64,000 nucleotides of DNA from assembly GCA_041662565.1 (NCBI GenBank), contig JBAZSE010000004.1, positions 7,398-71,397 on the forward strand, read 5' to 3'. The translations under genes and the position numbers were made by a program. Of the stretch, positions 5,193 through 63,287 are shown piece after piece. Every line of letters begins with the position of its first letter. The first letter of the stretch is position 1. The stretch is from Patescibacteria group bacterium (lineage in GTDB: Bacteria > Patescibacteriota > Patescibacteriia > UBA1558 > UBA10009). Below the pieces are notes generated by a model. The model searched no databases, was not told the origin of the DNA, and worked only from the letters and a program-made list of their open reading frames with translations.

Positions 5193-7322
5193 ATGGTTAT
5201 CAATCTAAACTATTTTAAATTTTCTCTGTTGCTGTTAATTTTACTGGCTTTTAACATACTTAACTGGCCAGCAGCTGTAATTGCCTCACTCGCAGGCGCT
5301 TTATTTTTAATTTTTGCCGGTTTGGCCATTGGCAATTGGCTGTTTATAAAAAATTCCTGGACCTGTCGTTTTATTTACGGCCTCCTATTTACAGGAGTTT
5401 TCGCCGCTTTAATTAATACCGCGTTCTTTTATCTTTCTAAAATGGACCAAAATGCCCACTTGGCCACTTTAGTTTTAATTTTTATTTTAACAACCTTGGC
5501 TGTTAAAAAACATCCTTTAATTTTTAACTTAAGTTGGAAGTTCGTTTGGCCGCGCTTAAATTTAACCTTATTAACTCTGGGCTACGGTTTTTTTATTGCC
5601 CTAATGTTTTGGCTTATTTTTAAAGCTCAAACAATCGTTTCAATTCGTTCACCTTGGGAAACAATTACCCCACAGATTTTTTTGTTATATTTTTTGGCTA
5701 CTTTTATTCTCTATGCCATTATAAAATTTTCCCATAGCAATAAAACATTGTTTTTAGTTTGTCTGCATGCTTTTTTAAGTTTTAGCGTAGCGTTGATAAT
5801 TTATCGCTTGGGTTTTGATTATGATCCTTTTATTCATCGCGAAAATCTACGCCTTATAGCCAAAAACGGCACTTTGCTACCCAAGCCGTTTTATTATATC
5901 GGTCAATACGGCTTAATTATTTTTTTAAGTAAACTTTTAAAAATTGGCCTGGATAATCTGGATAAGTTGTTATTACCATTAATGTCGGCTGTTTATTTGC
6001 CCACTACCGTTTATTACGCTTTTAAAGATAACTTTAAGGCGGAAAACAAAAATGTTATTTTAACCGCCTTAACGATTTTACTTTTGCCTTTTGGCGGATT
6101 TATTTTAACCACCCCCCAAGCGCTGGCCAATCTTTTTTCTTTAATAACGATTTTGCTTTCTTTATACTACATTAACCATCCGCGTGTAGCGCTGTGGCCA
6201 TTGGCTTTATTGGTGATAATGGCTTTGGTTGTTCATCCTTTGGCGGGCTTGCCTTTATTTTTCTTTTTTGCAGTTTTGGCTTTTTACCAACATCGACAGA
6301 AAAAATTCCCCCTAACTGGAACAAGCAATTTGCCAAAAATAATCCATCAATCAATTCTTTGGGAAATAATTATTTTGGGATCTTTGGCCTTGCCTGTTGC
6401 TTTTTTGATCAATTCGTATACCCTATCCCAACTTAAAGTAACTCTTTCCAGTAGCTGGGTTGCCAATATTATCGCTTCACTTTCGCACCAAACTGCTTTG
6501 TTTTACTACCGGCCGTTTATTTCTTTAACCGATTTAGTTTACAGCTTTGGCAAAAACAGCACTTTAATTATTTTTGTTTTGGCTTTAACTGGATTATTTT
6601 TTGTGGTAAAACATCGGCAATTTAAGCCCTATTTTGCTTACTTAGCAGGATTTTTAATGCTGATAATGAACTACTTTTTGGTTAAAGGCATGATTTCATT
6701 TTTTTCTCTGCTTTCTTACGAACAAATCACCTATCCCAAACGCATATTGGAAATAAGTATCTATTTATTACTGCCCTTTATTATCATTTCTCTTTATCTT
6801 TTTTTCCAAAAATTACAACAGCAAAAATCAGCAGTTATTTTATTATCTTTTGTTTTATTGTCAGTAGGGCTTAGCTGTTCTTGGTACTTGGCTTATCCCA
6901 GAGTTGATAAAATATCCGAAGATCACGGCTATTCCAGCTCTCAAACCGATTTTAAAACAGTAAAATTTATTGATGAGTTACAAAAAAGCCAGCCCTATAT
7001 TGTGCTAGCTGCCCAGCCCGTTAGCGCCGCCGCCATTAGTTCTTTGGGCTTTAAATACTACTATAACGATAACTTTTTTTATCCGGTTCCTACCGCTAGC
7101 CGCTTATATGGGCTATACGAAGATTTGGCCTATGCTAAAGGCAATACCGGAGAAATTATTGCCACAGCCGGCTATTTAACCGGCGTTACAGATATTTATT
7201 TTGTTTTAAACAATTACTGGCTTAATGCTTCGGATTTGATTGAAAAGCACAAACAATCGGCCGACCAATGGTTTGCCATTGACGGTAAAAATTATATATT
7301 TAAATATCAAATTGGCAAATAA
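5193..7322 (+). CDS. Large polytopic membrane protein (more than 14 TM), unknown; possibly GT-C or polymerase-like
   Basis: 709 aa, highly hydrophobic. The only plus-strand gene in the first 28 kb. Confidence 0.45.
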   Translation: MVINLNYFKFSLLLLILLAFNILNWPAAVIASLAGALFLIFAGLAIGNWLFIKNSWTCRFIYGLLFTGVFAALINTAFFYLSKMDQNAHLATLVLIFILTTLAVKKHPLIFNLSWKFVWPRLNLTLLTLGYGFFIALMFWLIFKAQTIVSIRSPWETITPQIFLLYFLATFILYAIIKFSHSNKTLFLVCLHAFLSFSVALIIYRLGFDYDPFIHRENLRLIAKNGTLLPKPFYYIGQYGLIIFLSKLLKIGLDNLDKLLLPLMSAVYLPTTVYYAFKDNFKAENKNVILTALTILLLPFGGFILTTPQALANLFSLITILLSLYYINHPRVALWPLALLVIMALVVHPLAGLPLFFFFAVLAFYQHRQKKFPLTGTSNLPKIIHQSILWEIIILGSLALPVAFLINSYTLSQLKVTLSSSWVANIIASLSHQTALFYYRPFISLTDLVYSFGKNSTLIIFVLALTGLFFVVKHRQFKPYFAYLAGFLMLIMNYFLVKGMISFFSLLSYEQITYPKRILEISIYLLLPFIIISLYLFFQKLQQQKSAVILLSFVLLSVGLSCSWYLAYPRVDKISEDHGYSSSQTDFKTVKFIDELQKSQPYIVLAAQPVSAAAISSLGFKYYYNDNFFYPVPTASRLYGLYEDLAYAKGNTGEIIATAGYLTGVTDIYFVLNNYWLNASDLIEKHKQSADQWFAIDGKNYIFKYQIGK

Positions 7323-56992: not shown

Positions 56993-57619
56993 ATGATAAT
57001 GTGCAAAGAATTGCTTCATTTGAAAAATCATAATAATACTTTTCATTACGGAGGGCTCGTGGGAAAACCACAGATATTGCCAAACGCCGGCGAACACAGA
57101 AAAATCGCCGGTAAGTATGGCAAGTCATTGATTGAGCAGGATTTTGAAAATCCGCACACCGGCCAGATTGAGACCTTTTCTCTGTTAGTTCAGAAGGATT
57201 GGTCTGTTGTTCTGGCCCTTACCTGCGGCAATCAGGTTCTGGTTGTTAACGAATTCAAGCAAGGGCGAAACTCGATCGAACGCGAGTTATCAGCTGGCAC
57301 AGCTGATTTTAACGAATCGCCCAGCGAAGTGATGAAACGCGAACTGTTGCAGGAAACCGGCTACCAAGCTGGCGAACTGATTAGTTTGGGTTTCGGCTGG
57401 ATGGCTACTCGTAATTCGCCTACCAAGGCGCATTTGTTTTTGGCCACCGGCTGCCAAAAAACACAACCAGCCAAACTTGATACCAGTGAGGTTATTGAAA
57501 CCGAACTGATACCCTTGAATGATTGGATCCAATTGGTGGTTGATGGCCAAATCAACGAATGGTCCGCTGTTATGGCAACTGTTCGAGCATTACCCCATCT
57601 TGGACTGCGAATTTCTTAG
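56993..57619 (+). CDS. NUDIX hydrolase; compositionally atypical (about 50% GC against about 35% locally)
   Basis: Nudix box ELSAGTADFNESPSEVMKRELLQETGY. GC counted directly on a 68-nt stretch gave about 53%. The true start may lie downstream of 56993. Confidence 0.65.
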   Translation: MIMCKELLHLKNHNNTFHYGGLVGKPQILPNAGEHRKIAGKYGKSLIEQDFENPHTGQIETFSLLVQKDWSVVLALTCGNQVLVVNEFKQGRNSIERELSAGTADFNESPSEVMKRELLQETGYQAGELISLGFGWMATRNSPTKAHLFLATGCQKTQPAKLDTSEVIETELIPLNDWIQLVVDGQINEWSAVMATVRALPHLGLRIS

Positions 57620-57638
57620 ATTTGACAACAAATCTATT

Positions 57639-57680
57639 ACCAGTAGGAATGCACAATATGCTTCCTACTGGTCTTTTTTT
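57639..57680 (+). terminator. Rho-independent terminator: perfect 11-bp stem (ACCAGTAGGAA/TTCCTACTGGT) followed by CTTTTTTT
   Basis: Seen directly, 20 nt after the NUDIX stop. Confidence 0.6.
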
Positions 57681-57747
57681 ACTAAAATCCCCTTAAAAAC
57701 TTATCCCCAATGCTTTTAATTGGCTAATATTAGCCATTTTTTAGTCC

Positions 57748-57776
57748 TTGACATTCTAATTACACTTAATTAAAAT
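57748..57776 (+). promoter_or_regulatory. Sigma70-like promoter TTGACA-17-TAAAAT upstream of the RHH-cysDN unit
   Basis: Hexamers seen directly, 28 nt upstream of ATG 57805. Confidence 0.4.
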
Positions 57777-57804
57777 ACATTATATAAATTAATCAAATAT
57801 ACTT

Positions 57805-58044
57805 ATGGGCACAAATACCCACAAATATACCACCGTTTCCCTGCCTATCCCCTTAAACGACAAGCTTAAAAAACTGATCGAGCCAACCGGCTTTGCTGCG
57901 GTTTCCAGCTTTGTTACTTATGTTTTAAGGCAGATTGTTTCGGACAGTCAACAAATTGACGCCAAACCGCTCGATTACAGTTTTAACAAGCAGGATGAAG
58001 ATAAAGTCAAAGACCGCTTAAGAAGCTTGGGTTATCTTAAATAA
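57805..58044 (+). CDS. Small ribbon-helix-helix-like (CopG/Arc-type) protein whose C-terminal tail duplicates the CysD C-terminus
   Basis: YTTVSLPIPLNDKLKKLIEPTGFAAVSSFVTYVLRQIV fits the beta-alpha-alpha RHH pattern. Ends ...DRLRSLGYLK; cysD ends ...QKLRSLGYM, with 16 of 18 nt identical. Confidence 0.4.
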   Translation: MGTNTHKYTTVSLPIPLNDKLKKLIEPTGFAAVSSFVTYVLRQIVSDSQQIDAKPLDYSFNKQDEDKVKDRLRSLGYLK

Positions 58045-58109
58045 TTAAAAGTGAGAGAGGTTAGTGACAATTTTTTGCAAACGAACTATAAAATTAATCA
58101 ATCATTTAT

Positions 58110-58913
58110 ATGGATCACTTAGATCAACTTGAAAACAAATCAATTTACATTATCCGCGAGGCCTACTATCAATATAAAAATATTGCCATGCTCTGGAGTA
58201 TTGGTAAGGACTCCACTTCCCTGTTGTGGCTAGTACGCAAGGCCTTTATGGGCCATGTGCCTTTTCCGGTAATGCACATTGATACAACTTATAAATTTCC
58301 GGAAATGTATATCTTTAGGGATAAATACGCCAAAGAGTGGGGCTTAAATTTGATTATTGCCAGAAATGACGATGCCATTAAAAGAGGTATTAGTTACGCC
58401 ACCCATGATGCCTTTACCTGTGCCCACGAACTTAAAACCGTTGCTTTGCAACAAACAATGGCCGAAAAAGGTTTTAAGGCCTTGCTGTTAGGAATTAGAC
58501 GCGATGAACACGGTATTAGGGCTAAAGAAAGGGTTTTTTCACCTCGCAGCCAGGATTTTAAATGGAACTATCAAGATCAGCCGGCTGAATTATGGGATCA
58601 ATACAAATCCAAGGTCTTGGAAGAAAACCATGTGCGGGTTCATCCCCTGCTCCACTGGACAGAACTGGATATTTGGAAATACGTTAAGCGTGAAAAATTA
58701 CCGGTTAATGAATTGTATTATGCCAAAAACGGTTTAAGGTACCGTTCACTTGGCTGTAAACCAATAACCAATCCCATGAAATCCGATGCCGATACGGTTG
58801 ATAAAATTATTGAAGAATTGGCAACAACAAAAGAAGCGGAACGTTCCGGCCGGGCTATGGATAAAGAACAAATGTATACCATGCAAAAGTTAAGAAGTTT
58901 GGGGTATATGTAA
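58110..58913 (+). CDS. cysD: Sulfate adenylyltransferase subunit 2
   Basis: IIREAYYQYKNIAMLWSIGKDSTSLLWLVRKAF (PAPS-reductase-like PP-loop), RSLGCKP, C-terminal KLRSLGYM; 267 aa. Confidence 0.85.
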   Translation: MDHLDQLENKSIYIIREAYYQYKNIAMLWSIGKDSTSLLWLVRKAFMGHVPFPVMHIDTTYKFPEMYIFRDKYAKEWGLNLIIARNDDAIKRGISYATHDAFTCAHELKTVALQQTMAEKGFKALLLGIRRDEHGIRAKERVFSPRSQDFKWNYQDQPAELWDQYKSKVLEENHVRVHPLLHWTELDIWKYVKREKLPVNELYYAKNGLRYRSLGCKPITNPMKSDADTVDKIIEELATTKEAERSGRAMDKEQMYTMQKLRSLGYM

Positions 58914-58923
58914 AGATAGATGA

Positions 58924-59077
58924 GGCGGTGAAAAAATATTTTTGCATTCCGAGGGACCGTTTAAGCCTCGCCAAATGCGACCTGATAAAATTCAAATCGG
59001 CGGGCATAGCTCATCAGGAAAAATGCACCAGCGATGGGCGCGTTTCCCGAGGATGAAAAAAATATTTTTTTACCGCC
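58924..59077. repeat. cysD-cysN spacer element: near-identical 20-bp termini (GGCGGTGAAAAAATATTTTT ... AAAAAAATATTTTTTTACCGCC) around a GC-rich core of about 115 bp
   Basis: Seen directly. The A/T part of each arm is itself palindromic, so the unique inverted repeat is GGCGGTG/TACCGCC plus context. The core is far more GC-rich than the flanks. Confidence 0.4.
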
Positions 59078-59128
59078 GAATCAAAAAATATAAAATTATC
59101 AATTCAAAATATTAAACATTTATAACCT

Positions 59129-60400
59129 ATGGATAAAAATTATTTAAAACTCGTGATTGTGGGCCATGTTGATCATGGCAAATCAACCTTAATCGGCCGG
59201 CTTTTGGTAGATACCGGCGTTATGCCCCAATCAAAAATAGACGAAGTTAAAACCGTTTGCGAATCATTGGGCCGGCCTTTTGAATTTGCCTATTTAATGG
59301 ATTATATGGAAGAAGAAAGGCAGAAAAAGATTACCATTGATACGGCGCAGATTTTCTTTAAAACCGCTTTACGCGATTACGTAATTATTGACGCGCCCGG
59401 CCACAAAGAATTCTTAAAAAACATGATTACCGGCAGTGCCCAAGCCGAAGGCGCGATCTTGATAGTGGATGCCAAAGAAGGCATTAAAGAGCAAACCAAG
59501 CGCCATGCCTATATTTTAAGCTTGCTCGGGTTAAAACAAATCGTGATCGTGATTAATAAAATGGATTTGGTTGATTATCAGGAAACCAAATTTGAAGAAA
59601 TTAAAACCGAATTGCTAAAACACTTAACAGCGGTTAACTTAACACCAACCTACATTATCCCCATTTCCGCCAGCAACGGCGATAATATTGCCAATAAATC
59701 AACCAAGATTAATTGGTACAGCGGCCCTACTGTTTTGCAAGCTCTTGATTCATTTTCCGAAACCTTGCCTACTCAATCTTTGCCTTTAAGATTGCCTGTT
59801 CAGGATATTTATACCGCAGCAGACAGAAAAACCTGGGCCGGTTTGGGTGAAACCGATCATAGTGATAAAGATTTGCTTGTTGGCCAAATTGAAAGCGGCA
59901 CAATCTCTGTAAATCAAGAAATAATTTTTTTACCTGGCAATCAAAAAACCACCGTTGTGGCAGTTAAAAAATGGAATCAAGATCCAACTTCCGTTTCTGC
60001 CGGCCACAACATTGGTTTGATTATCAAAGATGACCTGCCAATTAAACGCGGACAAGTTGCCTGCGCCACCAATGATTTACCCAAGGTTACCAATCAATTT
60101 AACGCCAGAATTTTTTGGATGTCACCTTCGGGCATTAAAATTGGCGAAAAATTTATTTTAAAATGCGCCACTCAAGAAACAGAGGCGGAAATTAAAATAA
60201 TCAATAAAGTTATTGATTCTTCCAGTTTAGAAATTTTAACTGATCGAAAAGAAGAAATTAAAGAAACCGAAGTAGCTGATGTAACTATAATCACCTCCAA
60301 TCCCATTGTAGTTGAAGATTACAATTACATCCAAGAACTTGGTCGGTTTGTTATTATTTCCGGCGAAGATATTGCCGCCAGTGGAATTGTTATAAACTAA
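59129..60400 (+). CDS. cysN: Sulfate adenylyltransferase subunit 1 (GTPase; no fused APS-kinase domain)
   Basis: [21 protein letters not shown] (G1), DAPGH (G3), NKMD (G4). 423 aa, which is GTPase plus beta-barrel domains only. Confidence 0.85.
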
Positions 60401-60407
60401 TTGCTAT

Positions 60408-61448
60408 ATGAATAAAAAAATTCTTCAATTATCGCTTATAATCATAATGGTTTTAACTTTAAGCGGTTGCGGTAAAAACAATAATGATACGGAACAAAAA
60501 CCAATTGTTGCGGAACCGCAAATTATGAAAGTTGGTTACTTTCCCAACATAACCCATGCTCAAGCCTTAGCCGGCATGAATATGGGAACATTCCAAAAGG
60601 CCTTAGGCGATTCGGTAAAGTTGGAAGCTAAAATTTTTAATGCCGGTCCAGCTGAAATTGAGGCGCTTTTTGCCGGTGAAATAGATTTGGGCTACATTGG
60701 CCCAAGCCCTGCCCTTAACGGCTATATAAAATCCCAAGGCCAGGCCTTACAAATTATCAGCGGTTCGGCTTCCGGTGGAGCTTCGTTAATTGTCAGCCAA
60801 GAACTGGCCAACGATTACAGCCAAAACGGAGTAAATGCGTTAATTGGCAAAAAAATCGCTTCGCCCCAGCAAGGCAATACTCAAGATATTTCTTTAAGAC
60901 ATTATTTAAAAGATAACGGCATATTGGAAAAAACCCAAATCATTCCTATTGCCAATGCCGATCAGTTAACCATGTTTAGCCAGAAAGAACTTGATGGCGC
61001 TTGGGCACCCGAGCCCTGGGCTTCACGCTTAATTGAAGAGGCAGGCGGGGTGCGCTTAATAGACGAACGCGATTTGTGGCCCAACAATCAATTTACCACA
61101 ACCAACATTATTGTCCGTACCGAATTTTTAAACCAACATCCTGATTTGGTAAAAAATTGGTTAAGGGCGCAAGTAGAAATTACTAACTGGCTAAAAAATA
61201 ATCCCATTGAGGCGCAAGCCGTAGTAAATTCGGAAATTGAAAAATTATCTTCCAAAAAATTAGCCGATAACGTTTTAAGTTCGGCCTGGGAAAAATTAAA
61301 TTTTACCGTTGATCCGTTAACTGATTCGGTAAAAACTTTTGCATCTTGGGCCTTTGATCAGGGTTATTTGGGCAAAACCCAGCCGGATTTAACCAATCTC
61401 TATAATTTAAACCTCCTCAATGAAGTTACAGGTCAAAAATATCAATAA
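60408..61448 (+). CDS. ABC transporter substrate-binding lipoprotein, NMT1/SsuA/TauA-like (sulfonate/nitrate/taurine family)
   Basis: Lipobox LTLSGCG; periplasmic-binding-protein fold similarities (GYFPNITHA, GYIGPSPALNG). Confidence 0.7.
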   Translation: MNKKILQLSLIIIMVLTLSGCGKNNNDTEQKPIVAEPQIMKVGYFPNITHAQALAGMNMGTFQKALGDSVKLEAKIFNAGPAEIEALFAGEIDLGYIGPSPALNGYIKSQGQALQIISGSASGGASLIVSQELANDYSQNGVNALIGKKIASPQQGNTQDISLRHYLKDNGILEKTQIIPIANADQLTMFSQKELDGAWAPEPWASRLIEEAGGVRLIDERDLWPNNQFTTTNIIVRTEFLNQHPDLVKNWLRAQVEITNWLKNNPIEAQAVVNSEIEKLSSKKLADNVLSSAWEKLNFTVDPLTDSVKTFASWAFDQGYLGKTQPDLTNLYNLNLLNEVTGQKYQ

Positions 61449-62178
61449 AACTTTTGCGGGCGAAAGCGGAAAAATTCAGGCCTTAACAGACATTAACCTT
61501 GATTTGCAAGAAGGTGAATTTGTTTGTTTGGTTGGGCCTTCGGGTTGCGGCAAATCAACACTTTTAAACATCATTGCCGGCCTAGCTCCAATTGATAGTG
61601 GAAAAATAGAATTTGCGGGCAAGCTTGGCTTTATGTTTCAGGAGCCAACCCTTTTTCCCTGGCTTAAAGTTAAAGATAACATTGCTTTTGGCTTGAAAAT
61701 CTTAAAAAAAAGCAAAGAAAAAATCAACGAAGTGGTTGATTATTTTTTGGAACTTACCCACTTGAGTAATTTTAAAGAGGCCTACCCGCACGAACTTTCC
61801 GGCGGCATGAAACAGCGCGTTGCTTTAGCCCGTACTCTGGCTTTAAAACCCGATATTTTACTAATGGACGAACCCTTTGCCGCGCTGGATGCCCAAACCA
61901 GGGAAATGCTTTACAAAGAGTTGCAGGAAATTTGGCAATTTTCCAAAAAAACCATTTTGTTTGTAACCCACAATGTGCGCGAAGCGGTAGTGCTGGGCGA
62001 TCGGGTATTGGTATTTACGGCCAGGCCCGGGCAAATTAAAAAAGAATTTAAAATAAATTTACCCCGCCCGCGAGATATTAACGATATTGAAGTAGCTAAA
62101 ATAAGCAACGCTATTAATCAGGAATTAAAAACCGAAGTGGCCAAAGTTGTTAATGAATTGGAACATTATGAAAAATAA
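61420..62178 (+). CDS. ABC transporter ATP-binding protein (SsuB/TauB-like)
   Basis: Walker A GPSGCGKST, signature LSGGMKQRVALAR, Walker B LLMDEPFAALD. Confidence 0.8.
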   Translation: MKLQVKNINKTFAGESGKIQALTDINLDLQEGEFVCLVGPSGCGKSTLLNIIAGLAPIDSGKIEFAGKLGFMFQEPTLFPWLKVKDNIAFGLKILKKSKEKINEVVDYFLELTHLSNFKEAYPHELSGGMKQRVALARTLALKPDILLMDEPFAALDAQTREMLYKELQEIWQFSKKTILFVTHNVREAVVLGDRVLVFTARPGQIKKEFKINLPRPRDINDIEVAKISNAINQELKTEVAKVVNELEHYEK

Positions 62179-62932
62179 ATTCATCCGCCTTGCCAAACCG
62201 TTACTTTTTATCGCACTTCTGATTTTATTGTGGCAAGCTTTGTTTTTGCTTAAAATTTGGCCCCAGTGGCTATTTCCATCCCCTATTGATGTTTTTGCTA
62301 CCATCTTCAACGGTTTTGTTTCCGGACATTTTATGTTGGGAATATTAATTAGTTTAAAAAGAATTTTTCTGGGTTTTGGGTTATCATTGATCGTCGGTAC
62401 AGTATTGGGATTTTTAATTGCCAAATTCAAACTTTTGCAAGAAACTTTACAACCCTTGATTTTAGGATTGCAAACTTTACCAAGCATTTGCTGGCTCCCA
62501 CTGGCTTTGCTGTGGTTTGGGTTAAATGAACAAGCCATTATTTTTGTTATCATCATGGGTACGGTATTAAGTTTAACTATTTCGGTAACCGATGCCGTTA
62601 GCCATATTCCACCGGCTTTTATTAATGCCGGTAAAATGCTGGGAGCGCACGGTTTTAATTTATCCCGATACATTATTTTACCCGCTATTTTGCCAAATTT
62701 TTTAACCGGGGTAAAACAGGGTTGGTCATTTGCCTGGCGATCATTGATGAGCGGTGAAATGCTTTTTATCACCATAGGTTTAGGGCAATTATTAATGTTT
62801 GGCCGAGAACTTAACGATATGGCCCAGGTTATGGCCGTAATGCTTATCATAATTATAATCGGCGTTATTTTTGATCAGCTGATTTTTGGAAAAATAGAAA
62901 AAGCCGTTAAATACCGCTGGGGTTTAAAGTAA
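62168..62932 (+). CDS. ABC transporter permease (SsuC/TauC-like)
   Basis: Six TM helices. The track start is TTG (62147); ATG 62168 (MKNKFIRL) overlaps the ATPase stop. Confidence 0.7.
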   Translation: MKNKFIRLAKPLLFIALLILLWQALFLLKIWPQWLFPSPIDVFATIFNGFVSGHFMLGILISLKRIFLGFGLSLIVGTVLGFLIAKFKLLQETLQPLILGLQTLPSICWLPLALLWFGLNEQAIIFVIIMGTVLSLTISVTDAVSHIPPAFINAGKMLGAHGFNLSRYIILPAILPNFLTGVKQGWSFAWRSLMSGEMLFITIGLGQLLMFGRELNDMAQVMAVMLIIIIIGVIFDQLIFGKIEKAVKYRWGLK

Positions 62933-63002: not shown

Positions 63003-63287
63003 TTAAACTAACTGTTTTTCCAATTTGGAAATTCTTTTATCATGCAACCATAGCTCCGATCTCATTTCTTGCCTTTCCACATCAGAACCAGTTACAATAT
63101 GCAAAATGGTTTGTAAAACACCATCCTGCTTATTCAACCTTTGATTCATCTCGTCCCTTAAAGCATCCGAATCCTGCTTTATGGCGGAAGCGTAGGTTTC
63201 AAAGAAGCTCTCCATTATTTCCACTGTTACCAGTGAGTTTTTGTCCAGCTTTTGGCCGACAACTGCAATTTTCGCTTTTCTTAGCAT
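63003..63287 (-). CDS. Hypothetical small coiled-coil protein
   Basis: 94 aa, charged heptad-like sequence. Confidence 0.35.
   Translation of the reverse strand: MLRKAKIAVVGQKLDKNSLVTVEIMESFFETYASAIKQDSDALRDEMNQRLNKQDGVLQTILHIVTGSDVERQEMRSELWLHDKRISKLEKQLV

Follow-up and report, generated by a model that had tools for sequence, protein, structure and literature searches.

A 64,000-nt stretch of a Patescibacteria group bacterium genome (contig JBAZSE010000004.1) carries a small open reading frame (ORF) of 79 aa that is followed, after a gap of 65 nt, by the genes for the two subunits of the heterodimeric ATP sulfurylase, cysD and cysN, and by genes for an ATP-binding cassette (ABC) transporter (Table 1). 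We refer to the whole stretch as the window; coordinates are positions in it unless they are given with an L-number, which denotes one of the related loci that we compared. The CysD protein of the window was recognized by the Pfam model PAPS_reduct (E = 1.3e-42), by the NCBIfam model PRK05253 (354 bits, cutoff 195) and by comparison with chain A of 1ZUN (E = 6.7e-66). CysN scored 344 bits against PRK05506 and 325 bits against TIGR02034, the latter being below the cutoff of 336.1. An orthologous locus from Komeilibacteria (L001) has the same gene order, with the small ORF followed by cysD, cysN, binding protein, ATPase and permease. We consider it probable that the small ORF encodes a ribbon-helix-helix (RHH) transcription factor from a large family without a name, the members of which serve sulfate-activation operons, a reading that takes in the mechanism and the portable C-terminal tail described below.

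Table 1. Features of the small ORF, its promoter region and the downstream operon in the window
Feature	Position	Strand	Description or basis
Sigma-70-type promoter of the small ORF	57748..57776	+	TTGACA at 57748-57753, 17-nt spacer, TAAAAT at 57771-57776
Predicted operator TAATTACACTTAATTA	57757..57772	.	Pair of palindromic TAATTA boxes at a distance of 10 bp that occupy the -35/-10 spacer
Probable RHH regulator gene (79 aa, subfamily A, 'KYTTVSIP' type)	57805..58044	+	99% identity to a Patescibacteria 'CopG family transcriptional regulator'
RHH core	57823..57954	+	Ribbon residues 7-14 (KYTTVSLP), helix A 15-25, loop TGFAAVS, helix B 33-50
Variable linker, residues 51-60	57955..57984	+	Predicted disordered; AlphaFold2 (AF2) predicted local distance difference test (pLDDT) <50 at residues 52-57
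C-terminal tail module, residues 61-79 (NKQDEDKVKDRLRSLGYLK)	57985..58041	+	Acidic stretch, amphipathic helix 62-75, L-G-Y-hydrophobic end; holds the 18-mer 58018-58035
cysD of the short type (267 aa), encoding the catalytic subunit of heterodimeric ATP sulfurylase	58110..58913	+	PAPS_reduct, PRK05253, 1ZUN
CysD C-terminal segment ER.GR..DKE....M..LRSLGYM, native to CysD	58839..58910	+	Holds the 18-mer 58890-58907; residue conservation
Inverted-repeat hairpin element, 164 nt, in the cysD-cysN spacer	58919..59082	+	38-nt arms, 76% complementary
cysN, GTPase subunit of ATP sulfurylase, without a fused adenosine 5'-phosphosulfate (APS) kinase domain	59129..60400	+	Pfam GTP_EFTU, GTP-eEF1A_C
NMT1-type binding protein gene	60408-61448	+	Pfam NMT1_2; first of the ABC transporter genes (60408..62932) after cysN
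ABC transporter ATPase gene	61420-62178	+	Pfam ABC_tran
ABC transporter permease gene	62147-62932	+	Pfam BPD_transp_1

Seven close homologs of the window protein (62 to 99% identity) all retain the ribbon, the helices and the ..RL(R/K)SLGYLK end. The wider RHH family amounted to 1,063 representatives at 50% clustering in an exhaustive profile search and to at least 4,829 clusters at 90% in a word-indexed profile search. Its members are found mainly in archaea and also in bacteria of the Candidate Phyla Radiation (CPR) and in Chloroflexota. They are annotated at source as 'CopG family transcriptional regulator', 'Arc/MetJ-type ribbon-helix-helix' or 'hypothetical', and none of the 120 family matches listed had a precomputed Pfam domain. 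In a set of 113 diverse members, no variation occurs at L72, G76 or Y77, and P14, F30, S32, L41 and L75 are nearly invariant. Across the family, the linker ranges from about 5 to 40 residues. Because L72, G76 and Y77 do not vary in these 113 members, the tail is, by this measure, under strong selection.

The N-terminal half had been described as fitting an RHH fold from the letters of the window alone, and several comparisons support this. The family profile matched the RHH domain of Pyrococcus horikoshii NikR (2bj1; positions 10-51, ribbon through helix B, E = 0.01), and the Pfam model RHH_1 matched 34 of the 113 members, with a best E-value of 7.8e-6. The AF2 monomer used here was built on an 81-sequence alignment (pLDDT 77; an earlier 8-sequence model with a pLDDT of 59 was not used). 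It shows an extended N-terminus, helices at residues 15-25 and 33-50, disorder at 52-57 and a further helix at 62-75 with a pLDDT of about 85. All top Foldseek matches in the PDB were RHH proteins, namely NikR (3od2_B, root-mean-square deviation 1.7 Å over 43 columns), ParD/PrpA, ParB of pCXC100 and AtaR. A large family with an RHH half and a fixed genomic position makes the small ORF a real conserved gene.

The genomic position of the family was followed by a scan of one genome per GTDB species, which gave at least 461 confirmed loci. The best 80 were analysed; they come mostly from Thermoplasmatota and other archaea, with Patescibacteria, Chloroflexota and Actinomycetota metagenome-assembled genomes (MAGs) also represented. 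The first downstream gene on the same strand was sat (PUA_2 plus ATP-sulfurylase domains) in 48 of the 80 loci, cysD in 18, a type I phosphodiesterase gene in 6 (two of these having cysC as the following gene) and a sulfotransferase gene in 1. Another gene stood there in 4 loci, and in 3 the contig ended after the RHH gene. Of the 77 loci with sequence beyond the RHH gene, 73 thus have a sulfate-activation or sulfation gene directly downstream, and an ATP sulfurylase gene (sat or cysD) is next on the same strand in 66/80. The gap between the RHH gene and sat ranges from -23 to 58 nt. The usual arrangements were sat-DHH-cysC (22 loci) and cysD-cysN-DHH (6 loci), in which the DHH protein is the archaeal 3'-phosphoadenosine 5'-phosphate (PAP) phosphatase characterised earlier (PMC10322725, PMC8268124). 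Family members also head a cluster of the type sat-DHH-(sulfotransferase)-cysC-(symporter)-phosphodiesterase in cultured Aciduliprofundum boonei T469 and in a Thermococcus MAG. The same small ORF with the same tail was present at orthologous cysD loci, e.g., in L001. Judged by this gene order, the RHH family is dedicated to sulfate-activation operons.

The predicted promoter of the small ORF matches 11 of 12 consensus positions and is the best site in 57550-59200; its TTGACA is conserved at the equivalent place in related CPR-type loci. The predicted operator within it has the pattern TAATTA-N4-TAATTA, which has a single exact match in the 64-kb window. When at most one mismatch was allowed, the pattern was found no more than 150 bp upstream of the RHH start in 66 of 77 loci (12.1 per kb), compared to 4 matches in about 637 kb elsewhere (0.006 per kb), corresponding to an upstream enrichment of about 1,900-fold. 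The exact pattern occurred upstream of the RHH gene in 32 of the 77 loci and 0 times elsewhere. Bacterial and archaeal loci alike follow the consensus TAATTA-(a/t)ATA-TAATTA, and exact boxes are spaced by 10 bp (39 pairs), 20 bp (8), 30 bp (14) or 40 bp (7), which places the boxes of an array on the same side of the helix.

In CPR loci the boxes lie inside the -35/-10 spacer, and in archaeal loci the arrays follow a TATA-like box and precede the start codon. Both would be repressor positions, and we infer repression from the established behaviour of RHH and archaeal repressors. Since the boxes fill the spacer between the two promoter elements, the arrangement suggests that the product of the small ORF is an autorepressor acting at the predicted operator. 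No + strand terminator was predicted between the small ORF and cysD, and co-transcription of the two genes is therefore plausible.

Three observations concern individual loci with cysD or with TAATTA-type repeats. L019, labelled as a Gammaproteobacteria MAG, has an RHH gene with the ..LGYLK end, a promoter/operator layout and a short cysD that are all of the CPR type; it may represent a mis-binned contig or a horizontal transfer of the cassette. CysD of an uncultured archaeon (L065, 4726-6801) is 691 aa long, with an in-frame intein (Hint_2, LAGLIDADG_3, Intein_splicing) splitting PAPS_reduct. In L174, a Nitrososphaerales MAG, TAATTA-type repeats (GCTTAATTACCTGTGATTAATGCTTAATTACAGGTAATTACC) are found at about 5930-5985, upstream of an operon for an ATPase, CobW and a desulfurase and with no RHH gene adjacent, which hints that this operon may be in the same regulon and its regulator encoded elsewhere.

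A second subfamily (B), which we sampled from metagenomes, has a different ribbon strand (KVTIKIP...GFNSVTEFVVYVLRD) and the same tail as subfamily A. Its genes are mostly followed by sat-phosphodiesterase-cysC, phosphodiesterase-cysC or cysD, and some loci have genes for sulfate-type or PstS-like ABC transporters downstream. TAATTA boxes are absent from subfamily B (0 of 78), which has repeats of its own, e.g., ACACTCTAATTTGAGTGTAATTAGAGTGTTATAGGAGTGT, located after TTGACA. A changed ribbon together with changed boxes is as expected if these proteins bind those boxes, and the paired differences between the subfamilies are indirect evidence for sequence-specific DNA binding through the ribbon. 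Some metagenome loci (L153, L163 and L164) have tandem pairs of tail-bearing RHH genes; L164 has the order subfamily B, then A, then cysD.

The pairing of ribbon and boxes also bears on the possibility that the small protein is not a transcription factor but an RHH antitoxin-like protein or an enzyme-accessory subunit, whose C-terminal helix would bind the product of the downstream gene. An RHH domain joined by a disordered linker to a C-terminal helix is the architecture of ParD/RelB-type proteins, ParD, PrpA and AtaR are among the top fold matches, and the downstream gene is closely spaced or overlapping. However, the downstream genes encode metabolic enzymes of two non-homologous types and no toxins, the phased operator boxes in the promoter are strongly conserved, and subfamily B combines its different ribbon with different boxes, as a sequence-specific DNA-binding protein would. 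We regard an antitoxin or accessory role as very unlikely.

The feature that first drew attention to the small ORF is its end. The two neighbouring proteins of the window terminate in ...DRLRSLGYLK (small ORF) and ...MQKLRSLGYM (CysD), with 6/8 identities in BLASTP (E = 0.039), and the 18-mers that encode LRSLGY are identical at 16 of 18 positions, both mismatches being synonymous third positions. The sequence-only reading of the window had reported this match at the 3' ends of the two genes, and its coordinates and sequences were confirmed. It had also stated that a K-R-x-G-Y tail is conserved in CysD proteins, and CysD of P. syringae (1ZUN) indeed ends in ...MEEKKRQGYF. Its further proposals were that the ending had been copied at the nucleotide level or that the ORF is a remnant of a duplication of the cysD 3' end. 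In such a case, a recent duplication or gene conversion in this genome would have placed the 3' end of cysD onto that of the upstream ORF.

The nucleotide match is more than chance, as only 3 of 500 codon shuffles of the small ORF reached 16/18 anywhere against cysD. It also exceeds the identity expected from the shared LRSLGY and the codon usage of the window (11.95 +/- 1.86 of 18; P(>=16) = 0.025). However, the codons flanking the two 18-mers differ and the similarity ends with the 18-mer. Moreover, the 14 other loci with both tails have DNA identities of 12-14/18, as is expected for coding the same peptide (13/18 in the Komeilibacteria ortholog L001), and a single outlier of P = 0.025 is unremarkable in 15 loci of about 11 lineages. 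When the RHH family was aligned with CysD by hhalign, the probability was 4.3% and only the last ~8 residues aligned. The tail does not vary over thousands of members of the family, which spans two domains of life. Given the 12-14/18 of the other two-tailed loci, we regard the nucleotide similarity as a by-product of the shared peptide. A recent segmental duplication or gene conversion is effectively refuted, and the CysD-like ending of the regulator is, on these comparisons, an ancient resemblance at the protein level.

The RHH tail ..RLRALGYLD is kept beside short CysD (..KLRSLGYM), long CysD (..MEDRKKEGYF) and Sat (..PFVE), and by this comparison it is a family hallmark that does not depend on the neighbouring enzyme. 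CysD has a C-terminal segment of its own, ER.GR..D......M......GY(M/F), which is native to the short and the long types and in which E244, R245, R248, D251, M258, G265 and Y266 are invariant. 'LRSL' is specific to short CysD, the long type having RKKE in its place. The invariance of G265 and Y266 argues that the CysD tail is functional. The tail is not mentioned in three publications that we consulted for the CysD C-terminus (PMC5770160, PMC4373884, PMC6286981), and a full-text literature search for the tail motif strings gave nothing relevant; a paper on a C-terminal peptide of plant sulfite reductase (SiR) proved unrelated.

Tails of this kind were also found on other enzymes. In 15 of the 19 complete APS kinases of subfamily-B loci, the normal C-terminus (..TLExLGYIP) is followed by an extra module that consists of a linker and (Y/F)S.EEEE.IK.RLKDLGYI. 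This add-on matched the RHH tail in BLASTP (12/24 identities, E = 5e-6) and is covered by no Pfam model; in L112, L113, L134, L137, L159 and others it adds about 25 residues after the complete kinase domain. In addition, a 267-aa ABC-type ATPase family of at least 3,688 clusters ends in ..LKERLRALGYIA or ..EEGLKERLRALGYIA (12/20 identities to the RHH tail, E = 3e-5), with the strict motif present in 73 of 120 members. The tailed ATPase gene stands first in an operon with genes for a CobW-type GTPase and a PF04060 Fe-S protein; a cysteine desulfurase gene is usually part of the operon as well but is missing in L173. A subfamily-B RHH gene lies upstream of the operon in L152 and L172. Because a module of ~20 residues is appended to APS kinases and forms the end of an ABC ATPase family, we regard the tail as portable, and these matches indicate that it is more than a helix cap. 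Natural proteins with two tandem tails exist as well (P0026).

The tailed ATPase loci among those compared are L152 (567-1394), L172 (845-4177) and L173 and L174 (6001-9401). The operon occurs in many bacterial phyla and in Nitrososphaerales, some ATPase members having C-terminal CBS domains instead of the tail, and the system appears to be uncharacterised.

The shared endings could also have arisen by convergence with no functional link. In that case the tail would be an amphipathic helix closed by a common capping pattern (L-x-x-L-G-Y-hydrophobic, Schellman-type), and LRSLGY would be a generic ending. The invariant L72, G76 and Y77 are the positions expected of such a cap. The tail region gives weak matches to the unrelated helix-LGY families CheR_N, PG_binding_2 and POTRA. 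Generic APS kinases end in a helix followed by G-Y/F/I-hydrophobic, including plant proteins (Arabidopsis APK1, ..LDNKGYLQA), and archaeal CysC ends are variable. On the other hand, in a set of 800 genes from the first 80 loci, only RHH proteins, CysD, CysC and one other protein ended in G-Y-hydrophobic. In the APS kinases, the whole ~20-residue module, acidic stretch included, follows an already complete C-terminus, with significant pairwise matches. We see convergence as a real but minor possibility.

The sequence-only reading had offered a more specific role, in which a small DNA-binding protein senses or competes for whatever the CysD tail binds. The C-terminal peptide of CysD would then dock on a partner such as CysN, and the regulator's copy of it would compete for or sense the same site and so report the state of CysDN. 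Such mimicry is in line with the near-identity of the terminal 8 residues, with the invariant glycine and tyrosine of the CysD tail and with the pairing of a tailed regulator and a tailed enzyme in three operon types (CysD, APS kinase, ABC ATPase). There is also a precedent, as the C-terminal tail of CysE inserts into CysK and the CdiA-CT toxin mimics the CysE tail. Yet the same tail is present in the 48 of 80 loci whose fetched flanks contain sat but neither cysD nor cysN, which disfavours competition for a CysD-tail site. Furthermore, beside long CysD (..RKKEGYF) the RHH tail remains ..RLRALGYLD, the variable A/S position of the two tails does not co-vary across lineages, and the similarity to CysD is limited to the ~8 residues noted above. 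We consider mimicry of the CysD tail improbable. What persists of a shared tail linking regulator and enzyme is indirect, namely the presence of the module on APS kinases and on the ABC ATPase; a tail that tracks the neighbouring enzyme was not found.

In a broader form, the 'acidic stretch-VK-RLR-LGY' tail might serve as an association module, through which the repressor and the APS kinase, the short CysD or the ABC ATPase of the cysteine-desulfurase operon would recognise each other or a common partner. The abundance or state of the enzyme could then feed back on operator occupancy. We put this forward as a tentative idea that is rather unlikely to hold. Two other roles of the tail were set aside. 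Against sulfation of the invariant tyrosine stand the basic flanking residues and a window in which neither an APS kinase nor a sulfotransferase gene was found. Against a proteasome HbYX-type, clamp-binding or encapsulation peptide, no hydrophobic residue precedes the tyrosine and the loci have no shell or partner genes.

Returning to the RHH repressor that we favour, we propose the following mechanism. The regulator gene would be transcribed from the TTGACA-17-TAAAAT promoter, and the transcript probably also covers cysD, cysN and the genes of the ABC transporter. RHH dimers would bind the 10-bp-phased TAATTA boxes in the promoter spacer, and their binding would repress the whole operon, the regulator gene included. 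The tail, composed of the acidic stretch, the amphipathic helix and the invariant L-x-x-L-G-Y-hydrophobic end and tethered by the disordered linker, would act in association: it may join RHH dimers so that they bind cooperatively, as in Mnt, or it may hold the repressor to enzymes that bear the tail. Its function would lie in oligomerisation or in coupling the regulator to an enzyme, and the natural proteins with two tandem tails would fit an associating unit.

Several points weigh against this proposal. The window protein alone has no Pfam match, and searching it against Pfam and NCBIfam gave nothing usable, with NikR at E = 0.16. The Foldseek matches have E-values of about 3, as is usual for so small a domain. 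The AF2 monomer shows no beta strand; as the inter-subunit ribbon cannot form in a monomer, we take the fold evidence to be supportive rather than conclusive. TAATTA-like strings are common in AT-rich DNA, and with one mismatch allowed the window contains 2 matches to the operator pattern compared to 2.0 expected. Since the pattern by itself is not rare in such a window, the operator call rests on its conservation across loci. The regulator has no ligand-binding domain. Sat is the commonest neighbour and lacks such a tail, a point against pairing of repressor and enzyme tails as a general rule, and the generic APS kinase ends described above belong here as well. For every family member, DNA binding, repression and oligomeric state are properties that we infer.

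Some further features lie near or within the operon. Folded as RNA, the hairpin element in the cysD-cysN spacer has a minimum free energy of -64.7 kcal/mol (z = -5.1). The window holds a single copy of it, and no Rfam match was found in 57500-59300, the hairpin included. It is absent from L001, where the spacer measures 18 nt. A related hairpin is located in the same spacer of another Komeilibacteria locus (L008, 2475-2645; z = -4.8), with common TTTTT(C)GCA..CCGAGG motifs and different stem sequences. The element could be an insertion similar to a miniature inverted-repeat transposable element (MITE) or a structured RNA, and it probably lies outside the regulator system. On the - strand at 63003-63287, a 94-aa ORF with no Pfam match has homologs (43-50% identity) at the corresponding place downstream of cysN in L019 and L030; from this recurrence we regard it as a conserved small protein near the cysDN operon in CPR-type genomes. 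The cysDN operon adjoins a large cluster of glycosyltransferase and polysaccharide genes. BLAST probes for APS kinase, Sat, PAP phosphatase and sulfotransferase found none in the 64-kb window.

To our knowledge, the control of sulfate activation and of 3'-phosphoadenosine 5'-phosphosulfate (PAPS) synthesis is essentially undescribed in archaea and CPR bacteria. The family described here, which runs to thousands of members and for which Pfam and NCBIfam have no model, is a candidate for this regulation. Its predicted operator is precise (TAATTA-N4-TAATTA in 10-bp phase) and conserved in two domains of life, and a second subfamily has boxes of its own. Small ORFs of this type could be named regulators of sulfate-activation operons in annotation, instead of the generic 'CopG family'. 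If the tail on enzymes of the same operon does mean physical coupling, it would be a new and simple way of linking enzyme state to transcription, and a regulator-enzyme coupling device common to archaea and bacteria in sulfur metabolism.

We found a gene in the position of the RHH family mentioned in one paper, as part of the sulfate-assimilation cluster of Pyrococcus yayanosii. In a single sentence, Jin et al. (2021, PMC8268124) call PYCH_17520 'a putative copG transcription factor' that 'potentially regulates the pathway'. It is the first gene of the cluster, directly upstream of ATP sulfurylase, DHH PAP phosphatase, type I phosphodiesterase and APS kinase. The family members of A. boonei T469, which appears in a figure of that paper, and of the Thermococcus MAG occupy exactly such a cluster. 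These members are about 49-51% identical to the window protein (A. boonei P0162: 49% identity with 96% of the window protein covered; family-profile E = 3.8e-31) and stand in here for PYCH_17520, which we liken to the family by cluster position. The window differs from the Pyrococcus cluster in that the partner is cysDN in a CPR bacterium and not sat in an archaeon, and PMC8268124 has no description of an operator, the tail module or a cross-domain spread. Our literature search gave nothing further on the archaeal 'putative copG' gene.

Arc, Mnt, CopG and MetJ are small RHH proteins that repress their own operon via phased promoter repeats, and we propose the same for the window regulator. In Mnt, an added C-terminal helix tetramerises two dimers. 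The disordered linker and the confidently modelled amphipathic helix of the AF2 monomer would fit a Mnt-like architecture. The window protein differs from these repressors in having no significant Pfam RHH match, in the invariant L-G-Y tail on a disordered acidic linker and in its sulfur-metabolism target; we know of no tail module shared with enzymes for Arc, Mnt or CopG. CopG is reported to occlude RNA polymerase at its own promoter (PMC2724298). NikR, which provides the best sequence and structure match to the DNA-binding half, has a C-terminal metal-binding tetramerisation domain of ~90 residues, whereas the window protein has a helix of only ~20 residues.

The ParD/RelB/CcdA antitoxins likewise combine RHH, disordered linker and a C-terminal partner-binding helix and are encoded by the first gene of a tight operon, and in type II systems the partner protein modulates operator binding (conditional cooperativity). 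Unlike these, the RHH family has no adjacent toxin gene, cysD, sat, a phosphodiesterase gene or a sulfotransferase gene being next instead in 73 of 77 loci. CysB/Cbl (LysR type) and CymR-CysK control sulfate activation genes and are functional analogues, with unrelated folds and no homology to the RHH family. They respond to defined effectors (N-acetylserine, APS, O-acetylserine), and CymR acts in complex with a pathway enzyme. In kind, the window regulator is thus an Arc/CopG/Mnt-like autorepressor as proposed above, and its nearest described relative is the 'putative copG' of the archaeal cluster. New, as far as we found, are the association with cysDN seen in Chloroflexota and in bacteria of the CPR, the predicted operator common to two domains of life and the portable tail on enzymes of the pathway.

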